Shown piece after piece: positions 36,001 through 39,000 of a DNA stretch of 64,000 nt (positions are counted from its first letter, which is position 1; each line of letters starts with the position of its first letter). A program made the position numbers. Source of the stretch: Escherichia coli O157:H7 (lineage in GTDB: Bacteria; Pseudomonadota; Gammaproteobacteria; Enterobacterales; Enterobacteriaceae); assembly GCF_013167455.1 (NCBI RefSeq), contig NZ_CP038328.1; one strand, 5' to 3'.

Positions 36001-39000
36001 GAAAGCCAGTTCACTGATGCGTTTTTGCAAATCGACCACATCGGTATAAAGCTGGTCAGCGTACTGATCCATGCCTTTGGTGGTGTTGTCGCCAAACAAT
36101 GCTTTTTCCAGACGGTGGAAACCGGTGAATTTTGGATCAGCGGCTTTTTGCTCGTAATCATCTTCACGGGCGTCAATGCTGCCATCCAGATCGGAGAACA
36201 GTTCAGCAATCGGTTCAATGCGCTCATAGTGCTGGCGCGTCGGCGCATACAGTGCTTTCGCTTTTTCGATATCGCCTGCTTTAATCGCGTCGGTAAAGGC
36301 TTTGGTGTCGGTCACCAGCTGTGTGGTTTCCGCCATGACATACGCTTTATATGCAGTAATTGCACCACCAAGACTTAACAGCGCATCACTTTGCGCCGCA
36401 TCCGCCGTTGCCTCACCTTTGACGATCAACTTCCCTTTCGGGTTAGTCAGCAGACCGCAGGTCATATCGTATTCGCCAGGCTGTAAATTCGCCGTCATTT
36501 TCTGGCTAAAGCCAGGGGCGATATTTTCCCGCTCTTCCACCACCATCACGCCTTTGAGGATCTCCCATTCCAGCGCCTTCTGGCTGTGGTTCTGAATAAT
36601 GAACTGTGTTTTCCCGGCGTTAACCGTAATGGTCATCGGTTCGCACTGCTTATCCGTCACGGTCACTTTGACCTGCGGCACATCAGCGGCGTTAGCCATA
36701 AAAGCAGAAGAAAACAGCGCAGCCACGCTCAACTGCAATGCGTTACGGCGGAAGTTAATGGTCATGACGAGACTATCCCTTTAAAGTATGTTGTAACTAA
36801 GCAAGAGTTTGCGTCGTATTTGTTACGCGGAGCGAGACGCTGTCGCCCCTGCGCGTGGTGGCAGAGCAAATGCCACCAGCGCCGGGATGAGATAAATAAA
36901 CCAGACGGCGACTTCGCTGACGCTCGGCGCTTCCTGATAGCCAAAAATCCCTTCCATCAGCGTGCCAAACAGCGAGTGAGTTGAGAGCACCGCACTCATA
37001 TCGAAGGCGATTTCCTGAAAGTGGTTCCACAATCCGGCTTCATGAAATGCGCGAATGGCACCAGCTGCCAGCCCTGCGGCGACGAAGAGAATAAACAGGC
37101 TGGTCCATTTAAAAAATGCACCAAGATTGAGGCGAATACCGCCCCAGTAGAGCAGGAAGCCTAGCACCACGGCAGTAGCAAGACCGAGCATTGCACCCAG
37201 CGGCGGCCAGATCCCGACATCTTGTTGAAATGCCGCCAGCAGGAAAAAGACCGACTCCAGCCCTTCCCTTGCAACGGCAAAAAAGACCATCATCACCAGC
37301 GCCCAGCCATGATGATTTCCACGCTGCAATGCGCTATCGACAGCCTGCTCCAGTTGTACTTTGACGTTGCGCGACACTTTGCGCATCCAGAAAACCATCC
37401 AGGTAAGGATCACCACGGCGATCACCGCCACGATACCTTCAAACAGTTCCTGCTCTTTTTGCGGAAATTCGCCGGTGGTTTCGTTAATGAAGATCCCCAA
37501 GCCCAGGCACAACGCAGCGGCAAGCAACACGCCAATCCACATCACACCAATCCATCGGCCTCGCTGGGTACGCTTAAGATAGCTGGCAATCAAACTGACA
37601 ATCAGCGCGGCTTCAAGTCCTTCGCGCAACATAATGAGAAACGGAACAAACATGCCACCCACCCTTAAACGTTTTTCTGAGTCAATCTATGCAAAGAAAA
37701 GTAAATCGCAGTGATAGCGATTATCATTACGCTAAAGAAAAATACAAGCGGAATATTTATAAAATGATGTTGGAATGTAAAAATGAGGAGATCAAATCCG
37801 GAGAAAAAAGCGATTATTTTAAGGTATTTAGCTGACGTTTCGCCCGGCAGATGAAGCTTGTACGAATGTTGGTGGCGACAAACTCGCTGCAGCGTGCCCG
37901 AAGGGTTGAATTTTCAGTTAGTCGTTTCACAAAAGAACGTTGTTTTTTGCTTATTAATAGATAGTGATAAGGTTGTGAATGAAATTATACCTCATCTCCT
38001 CATCGAATTTTTTGCCCACAACCTAAACAGGAGAAAACGTGTATTTAAGTCTGGAATGAGCGATTTTTGATAGTGCCTAATTATCCCCCAAAATTATAAT
38101 TCCCCTTATTATATTCCCAGTGATATCATTTTATGGCTAATGCTACATACAATTCTAAATCACGATAAAACGAAGCAGGATGCGCATTAATAAAGTCACA
38201 CATAATAAAAATAGAAATCTTAACCAGAAGTAATAGATCATCGTGAAAATCAATCACCAAAAACACCAACACACAAAAATCAATAATTTAATAATTGTTC
38301 AGGGCTTTTTTCTCACGATTTTTCTACTATGACATTATCACAAACCCACTAGCATGAATACAGAAAGAGAAGTAATAAGATGAGACGCCACTGCTTTCAG
38401 ATGAACCCTGTAATTAGGGTCGAGAATATAATTTACCCATTCACCTAACGATAAATTAAAAAATTTGCGAGTTAATTTTTCTCTGGCTGAAGGCTAACGT
38501 CGAGTTATCGATAAAATTCACGAGTAATTGTAACTATATACTTTATGAAACACAGGAAGAAATTATTATTTAACGCGATGATAAAAGGCGTAAAAAAAAA
38601 TAATAATCTTCATGAAACTCACCCCGATGGCAGCATTGTAAATTCGCCAATAACTGGCATTCCTCCTGCTTTTTACGGGTGTTTCCATTAACACCAGAAT
38701 GAGCGGATTGTTTACTACATCAAGAACGCATCCGAAGTGTACATCCTGGTGCGCCGACTGAATCGCCCGGAGCCATGCGGATGGCTACGACTTAATACGA
38801 ATCATTAACCCTGTAAGGATACGGAGAGCATTACATGAGACCAATATCCAACCTCAATACGAGCGCAGCAACCTATATTCCACCGCAACAACTCCCGAGT
38901 AGTTGTCTGGAAACTTTGACGCTTCTGGTGCAGATGAATAATTATATCAAAAGGGATGCGGACTACAGCACGGGCATGGCTGTAGCTCCACTGGTTCCTG

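Follow-up and report, generated by a model that had tools for sequence, protein, structure and literature searches.

The 64,000-nucleotide stretch of Escherichia coli O157:H7 DNA analysed here (contig NZ_CP038328.1 of RefSeq assembly GCF_013167455.1; hereafter the window, whose coordinates are used throughout) carries an efeU gene that, judged from its sequence, is almost certainly the wild-type, functional allele and the first gene of an efeUOB operon in an O157:H7-type chromosome. EfeU is reportedly the permease of the Fe2+ uptake system EfeUOB, a role said to have been described by Grosse et al. in 2006 and by Cao et al. in 2007. That O157:H7 possesses an intact and functional efeU is already known and has been in print since 2006-2007; here, the K-12 lesion is placed exactly in window coordinates, its confinement to K-12 laboratory lineages is shown by a population count, and the coordinates of the Fur box are corrected. 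The intact frame, the family assignment, the motifs, the integrity of the operon, the K-12 lesion with its restriction and the Fur-box match are direct data of the present analysis.

Positions 36823 to 37653 of the minus strand form one unbroken reading frame of 831 bases, which runs from ATG to TAA and comprises 276 codons plus the stop codon (Table 1). The likelihood that 276 codons stay open by chance was estimated as (61/64)^276, or about 2e-6 per frame start, and the frame is hence not attributable to chance. The automatic listing of open reading frames (ORFs) also offers an in-frame GTG at position 37662 as an alternative start three codons further upstream; the ATG at 37653 is the start given by RefSeq, where the identical stretch of O157:H7 is annotated with a coding sequence (CDS) of 831 bp (WP_000497942.1). 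Over the 1201 bp surrounding efeU, the window shows 100% identity to several E. coli O157:H7 chromosomes whose annotation gives efeU as an intact CDS; over a wider segment of 9.2 kb, blastn gave 99.92% identity to O157:H7 strain PV15-279. A single insertion or deletion was found when the window was compared with the O157:H7 locus.

In the K-12 strains MG1655 and DH10B, the RefSeq entry for efeU is an 830-bp pseudogene with a frameshift (b4490 in MG1655). A MAFFT alignment of the window gene with b4490 traced this defect to the GG pair at window positions 37547-37548 (codon 36; Table 1), one G of which is missing in K-12; in K-12, translation encounters a stop at codon 37 and yields a product of 36 residues. 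Past the deletion, the +2 frame of K-12 encodes the same protein as the window. Only five further differences separate the two genes, all of them in third codon positions and synonymous (identity at 825 of 830 aligned positions), so that the EfeU protein of the window equals the repaired EfeU protein of K-12. Since the rest of the K-12 gene is undecayed and its differences are synonymous, the lesion represents a single and recent event in a gene that shows no other decay. The window gene has kept the GG pair and remains open to codon 276; hence, it is not a cryptic allele of the b4490 type. Both genes occupy the same locus between putP and efeO, but of the transmembrane segments and REGLE motifs, b4490 retains only the first of each.

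These findings bear directly on the preliminary description of this locus, which had claimed a continuous 276-codon frame containing both Ftr1-type REGLE motifs and an efeU gene intact in contrast to the frameshifted K-12 allele. ORF listing, sequence and alignment agree on the frame; a motif scan places the two motifs at amino acids 10-14 and 129-133; and the alignment with K-12 efeU, which had been proposed as a check, locates the frameshift site through the single-G deletion in b4490 and reveals no overlooked internal frameshift or stop codon in the window gene.

The encoded protein belongs to the EfeU/Ftr1 family of iron permeases, as full-length profile matches exceed the curated cut-offs: it scored 331.2 bits against the NCBIfam EfeU equivalog NF041756 (cut-off 255), 351.7 bits against TIGR00145 (cut-off 303.8), and 300.3 bits against the Pfam family FTR1 (PF03239; cut-off 25.3) across residues 1-275. 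Hydropathy peaks occur at about amino acids 1-24, 32-60, 68-94, 120-138, 148-173, 177-204, and 242-266. On the Kyte-Doolittle scale with 19-residue windows, six segments reach values of at least 1.6, and the REGLE-bearing fourth segment reaches 1.59 (in the window starting at amino acid 120). This profile, a simple hydropathy estimate rather than the output of a dedicated topology predictor, fits a seven-helix permease with the REGLE motifs in helices 1 and 4.

Directly 3' of efeU, and on the same strand, lie efeO and efeB (Table 1), separated from their upstream neighbors by gaps of 57 bases (efeU/efeO) and 5 bases (efeO/efeB). EfeO matches NCBIfam PRK10378 with 773 bits over residues 1-375 of 375 and contains the Pfam domains Cupredoxin_1 and Peptidase_M75. 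EfeB matches TIGR01412 with 617 bits (cut-off 428) and contains Dyp_perox_N and Dyp_perox_C; a twin-arginine leader (RRRLLKG) is visible in its translation. Because both genes are full length and consecutive with an intact efeU, the efeUOB operon is complete. Compared with K-12, EfeO differs at one residue and EfeB at six.

Transport activity, the oxidase-coupled mechanism, and control by Fur and CpxR are taken from the literature. PMC4746246 and PMC7549933 cite a report by Cao et al. (2007) whose title describes efeUOB as cryptic in K-12 and functional in O157:H7, and passages in PMC3852070 and PMC3832793 credit the same work with Fe2+ uptake by the O157:H7 operon at low pH under aerobic, iron-poor conditions. 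The MG1655 transporter is described as non-functional owing to the frameshift (PMC2808357), and improved growth under iron restriction after restoration of an in-frame operon is mentioned among these citing papers (PMC4746246, PMC7549933, PMC3852070, PMC3832793, PMC2808357). According to PMC3832793 and PMC3852070, EfeB and EfeO are thought to oxidize iron and to hand it over to EfeU, in analogy to the oxidase-permease pair Fet3/Ftr1 of yeast. The preliminary description took the intact gene to imply a functional EfeUOB ferrous iron transporter, and the intact operon, the identity to O157:H7 and this literature all lend support to that suggestion.

The picture that would follow is that of an Ftr1-family permease in the inner membrane with about seven transmembrane segments, in which segments 1 and 4 would each contribute a REGLE (REXXE) motif to iron coordination. 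EfeU would act together with two periplasmic partners, the cupredoxin-M75/imelysin protein EfeO and EfeB, a heme-containing DyP peroxidase exported by the twin-arginine translocation (Tat) pathway. The system would take up ferrous iron; probably, Fe2+ is oxidized in the periplasm and Fe3+ is passed on via EfeU, comparable to the yeast Fet3-Ftr1 system. Fe2+-Fur, acting at the Fur box upstream of efeU, and CpxR, at high pH, would be expected to repress expression; through the repression by CpxR, expression would be inducible by acid.

We detected no difference between the window gene and efeU (ycdN) of E. coli O157:H7 and of strain Nissle 1917; length, the two REGLE motifs, the gene order efeU-efeO-efeB and the upstream Fur box are all shared, and the window efeU is that gene. 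More distant systems resemble it in part. Yeast Ftr1p, which works with the multicopper oxidase Fet3p, falls over its full length into the same Pfam family (PF03239), has REXXE in two transmembrane segments and is likewise coupled to a periplasmic or extracellular partner thought to oxidize Fe2+ (family knowledge and statements in PMC3832793). In the bacterial system, EfeO and the DyP peroxidase EfeB take the place of the multicopper oxidase, and the mechanism by which they are coupled to the permease in E. coli is less firmly established. EfeUOB of Bacillus subtilis and FtrABCD of Brucella and Bordetella, as described in PMC3832793, also take up ferrous or ferric iron by means of an Ftr1-type permease and accessory proteins located in the periplasm or outside the cell; by description, they are set apart by other accessory sets and by their regulation.

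Table 1. Features of the efeU region and of the adjoining island (window coordinates; minus strand features read toward lower numbers).
Feature	Position	Strand	Basis and remarks
efeB, 423 aa, Tat-exported DyP-type peroxidase/deferrochelatase	34361..35632	-	NCBIfam, Pfam, leader
efeO, 375 aa, periplasmic cupredoxin + imelysin (M75) protein	35638..36765	-	NCBIfam, Pfam
efeU CDS, intact Ftr1-type iron permease	36823..37653	-	ORF, profile matches, DNA identity to annotated O157:H7 efeU
Second REGLE (REXXE), aa 129-133, within hydrophobic segment 4 (GWALVMMVFFAVAREGLESVFFLLAAF)	37255..37269	-	Motif scan + hydropathy
GG pair, codons 35/36, K-12 frameshift site, intact here	37547..37548	-	GATTGGTGTG in window vs GATT-GTGTG in K-12
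First REGLE (REXXE), aa 10-14, within hydrophobic segment 1	37612..37626	-	Motif scan + hydropathy
Shine-Dalgarno-like AAGGGTGGG	37658..37666	-	4-12 bases 5' of efeU ATG; read off sequence
CpxR-like box GCAAAGAAAAGTAAA, GTAAA-N5-GTAAA with 1 mismatch	37691..37705	+	Between Fur box and ATG; pattern scan of 37654-37800
Fur box CGTAATGATAATCGCTATC, 15/19 to consensus	37713..37731	-	60-78 bp 5' of efeU ATG; mismatch scan
Sigma-70-like promoter candidate TTTACA-18-AATATT	37752..37781	-	Consensus scan, 9/12; weak
Island, 2544 bp	37782-40325		Between putP and efeU promoter; K-12 has 413 unrelated bases there
447-aa ORF, annotated hypothetical protein (WP_001247490)	38835..40178	+	Island ORF

The 134 bp immediately upstream of efeU match K-12 save for a few single-base differences, and they hold both regulatory boxes (Fur and CpxR-like) as well as the -35/-10 candidate. 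When both strands of the 64-kb window were scanned against the Fur consensus GATAATGATAATCATTATC, no site with three or fewer mismatches was found, and the Fur box listed in Table 1, which is defined by its match to the consensus sequence and is identical in K-12, was the only site with 15 of 19 matching positions. The preliminary description was right in announcing a Fur-box-like site upstream of efeU but misplaced it, and this is its sole error: read in that register, the 19-mer at 37702-37720 matches the consensus at 3 of 19 positions, overlaps the Fur box by 8 bp and takes in part of the CpxR-like box, while the true site lies 11 bp further from the gene. The consensus sequence for CpxR is GTAAA-N5-GTAAA, and the direct repeat between the Fur box and the start codon departs from it at one position. 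This repeat fits the published repression of efeU by CpxR (cited in PMC3852070 and PMC9600279). PMC4145685 includes efeU among the genes regulated by Fur, with a Fur box detected by computation, and statements in PMC3852070, PMC4145685, PMC9600279, and PMC3832793 portray the gene as repressed by both Fur and CpxR and, hence, as acid-induced. A scan of positions 33000-43000 with Rfam gave no match in the efeU region.

Nothing in the sequence of the window speaks against a functional allele. Several considerations nevertheless weigh against this reading. The promoter hexamers match the consensus weakly, and sites of this quality are no more common in the region than in shuffled sequences. The sequence upstream of position -134 is wholly unlike that of K-12, so that control from distal sites may not be the same in this strain as that mapped in K-12. 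Activity, regulation and mechanism are inferred from published work on the O157:H7 and Nissle 1917 alleles, as cited in later papers. Finally, a search of solved structures with the EfeU sequence returned no EfeU/Ftr1 relative at E-values up to 0.01, and the roles of the motifs are for this reason deduced from knowledge of the family.

Some of these points would also suit a different situation, in which the efeU frame is intact and the system is nonetheless silent or non-functional, either through a missense mutation, through a defect in efeO or efeB, or through loss of promoter function as the island replaces the sequence upstream of -134. The unrelated sequence beyond window position 37781, the weakly matching hexamers and the seven positions at which the partner proteins depart from K-12 (six in EfeB and one in EfeO) can be cited in its favor. 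Against these stand the identity of EfeU with the repaired K-12 protein, the end-to-end matches of EfeO and EfeB to NCBIfam equivalogs far above the cut-offs, the conservation of the proximal 134 bp with the promoter candidate and both regulatory boxes, and the functional O157:H7 operon to which the citing papers refer. We therefore consider a silent system very improbable and retain the interpretation that the window carries a functional efeU allele.

How widespread the K-12 lesion is was determined with a probe consisting of 60 bases of K-12 sequence centered on the deletion, which found matches in 5379 complete E. coli genomes; a count of this junction detects that one deletion and no other inactivation of efeU. 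The deletion junction was exact in 368 of the 5379 genomes (about 7%), and all 60 of the exact matches among those listed were K-12 laboratory derivatives (MG1655, DH5alpha, DH1, C600, J53, RR1, NCM3722, and others). The remaining genomes, about 5010 in number, match the probe at 95-99%, and in the rows sampled, each match that extends over the entire probe at less than 100% identity is 61 bases long, which means that the extra base is present. Since about 5010 genomes carry it, an intact efeU is the normal state of E. coli, just as the preliminary description had supposed for pathogenic and other non-K-12 strains, and the frameshift is a peculiarity of the K-12 lineage, over-represented among complete genomes because laboratory strains have been sequenced so often. 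It is extremely unlikely that a sequencing or assembly error at a short run of G, in either the window or the K-12 record, accounts for the difference between the two alleles: a one-base length difference is a typical error, though usually one of homopolymers longer than a GG pair, whereas a two-base run is not error-prone, RefSeq marks the frameshift in MG1655 and DH10B alike, GG recurs in some 5010 independent genomes, and the K-12 derivatives with a single G were independently sequenced many times. As the source of the intact frame, an artefact is ruled out by these population data.

Seven efeU matches were located on records labeled as plasmids, and a few genomes contained two copies; such cases may reflect chromids, misassigned replicons or real duplications.

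For this strain, the intact allele would mean a working third route for the uptake of ferrous iron at low pH, unlike the situation in K-12. It is of relevance for the physiology of O157:H7 in acidic, aerobic and iron-poor niches; otherwise, little follows from it beyond a correct annotation.

Homology to K-12 stops upstream of efeU at window position 37781, where the candidate -35 hexamer sits at the very edge of the shared sequence, and it restarts at position 40326, the end of putP. The intervening island (Table 1) has a G+C content of 44%, compared with 53% for efeUOB. Of 5426 complete E. coli genomes, 645 (about 12%) carry one copy of it, at the same site and with 92-100% identity. The points at which other strains lose homology vary, which suggests a variable hotspot.

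While there is nothing novel about efeU itself, the island encodes a 447-residue protein that is the only unexplained part of the neighborhood and that, alone among the items described here, may merit further study. It has no match in Pfam or NCBIfam. A word-indexed search of 5.8 billion proteins retrieved homologues only at identities of at least 85%, those with a name being from E. coli and the rest nameless. An exhaustive HMMER search yielded about 40 distant relatives of its C-terminal half (amino acids 240-430), which consists of three tandem repeats of about 62 residues each. In the relatives, which are proteins of up to 2136 residues, two to six stretches were matched. Several of them end in a SET domain, whereas the E. 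coli protein lacks one; some are named as SET-domain protein-lysine methyltransferases and come from Salmonella enterica subsp. indica and S. bongori, and others are from Pantoea and Paraburkholderia.

With an alignment of 25 sequences, AlphaFold modeled the three repeats at a predicted local distance difference test score (pLDDT) of 92.6; from the single sequence of the 447-residue protein, it gave a pLDDT of 36 and a useless model. In the alignment-based model, each repeat appears as a small helical unit plus a beta hairpin, weakly resembling DNA-binding domains of the winged-helix or CENP-B type. Comparison of the protein with the PDB by Foldseek yielded no significant hit (the best E-value was 1.2), matches to solved structures in a profile search were at chance level only, and a literature search for WP_001247490, or for SET domains in combination with Salmonella bongori and effector, found nothing. 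The model thus suggests, without establishing it, that the repeat is a DNA-binding one. One speculative proposal, which we regard as rather unlikely, is that the protein is a novel module for targeting DNA or chromatin, perhaps acting as a secreted effector or as a nucleoid-associated regulator, and that the island, by its position, could in addition change how efeUOB is controlled from distal sites in O157-type strains.

The Rfam scan also picked up a feature some distance from efeU. A match to Ysr251 (RF02855), a family of antisense small RNAs from Yersinia, was found at window positions 33000-33151 on the plus strand with a score of 133.7 bits (gathering score 100), covering model positions 43-194 and lying antisense to the 3' part of phoH. 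As the match is cut off by the lower boundary of the scanned range (33000-43000), the element itself probably starts near position 32958.
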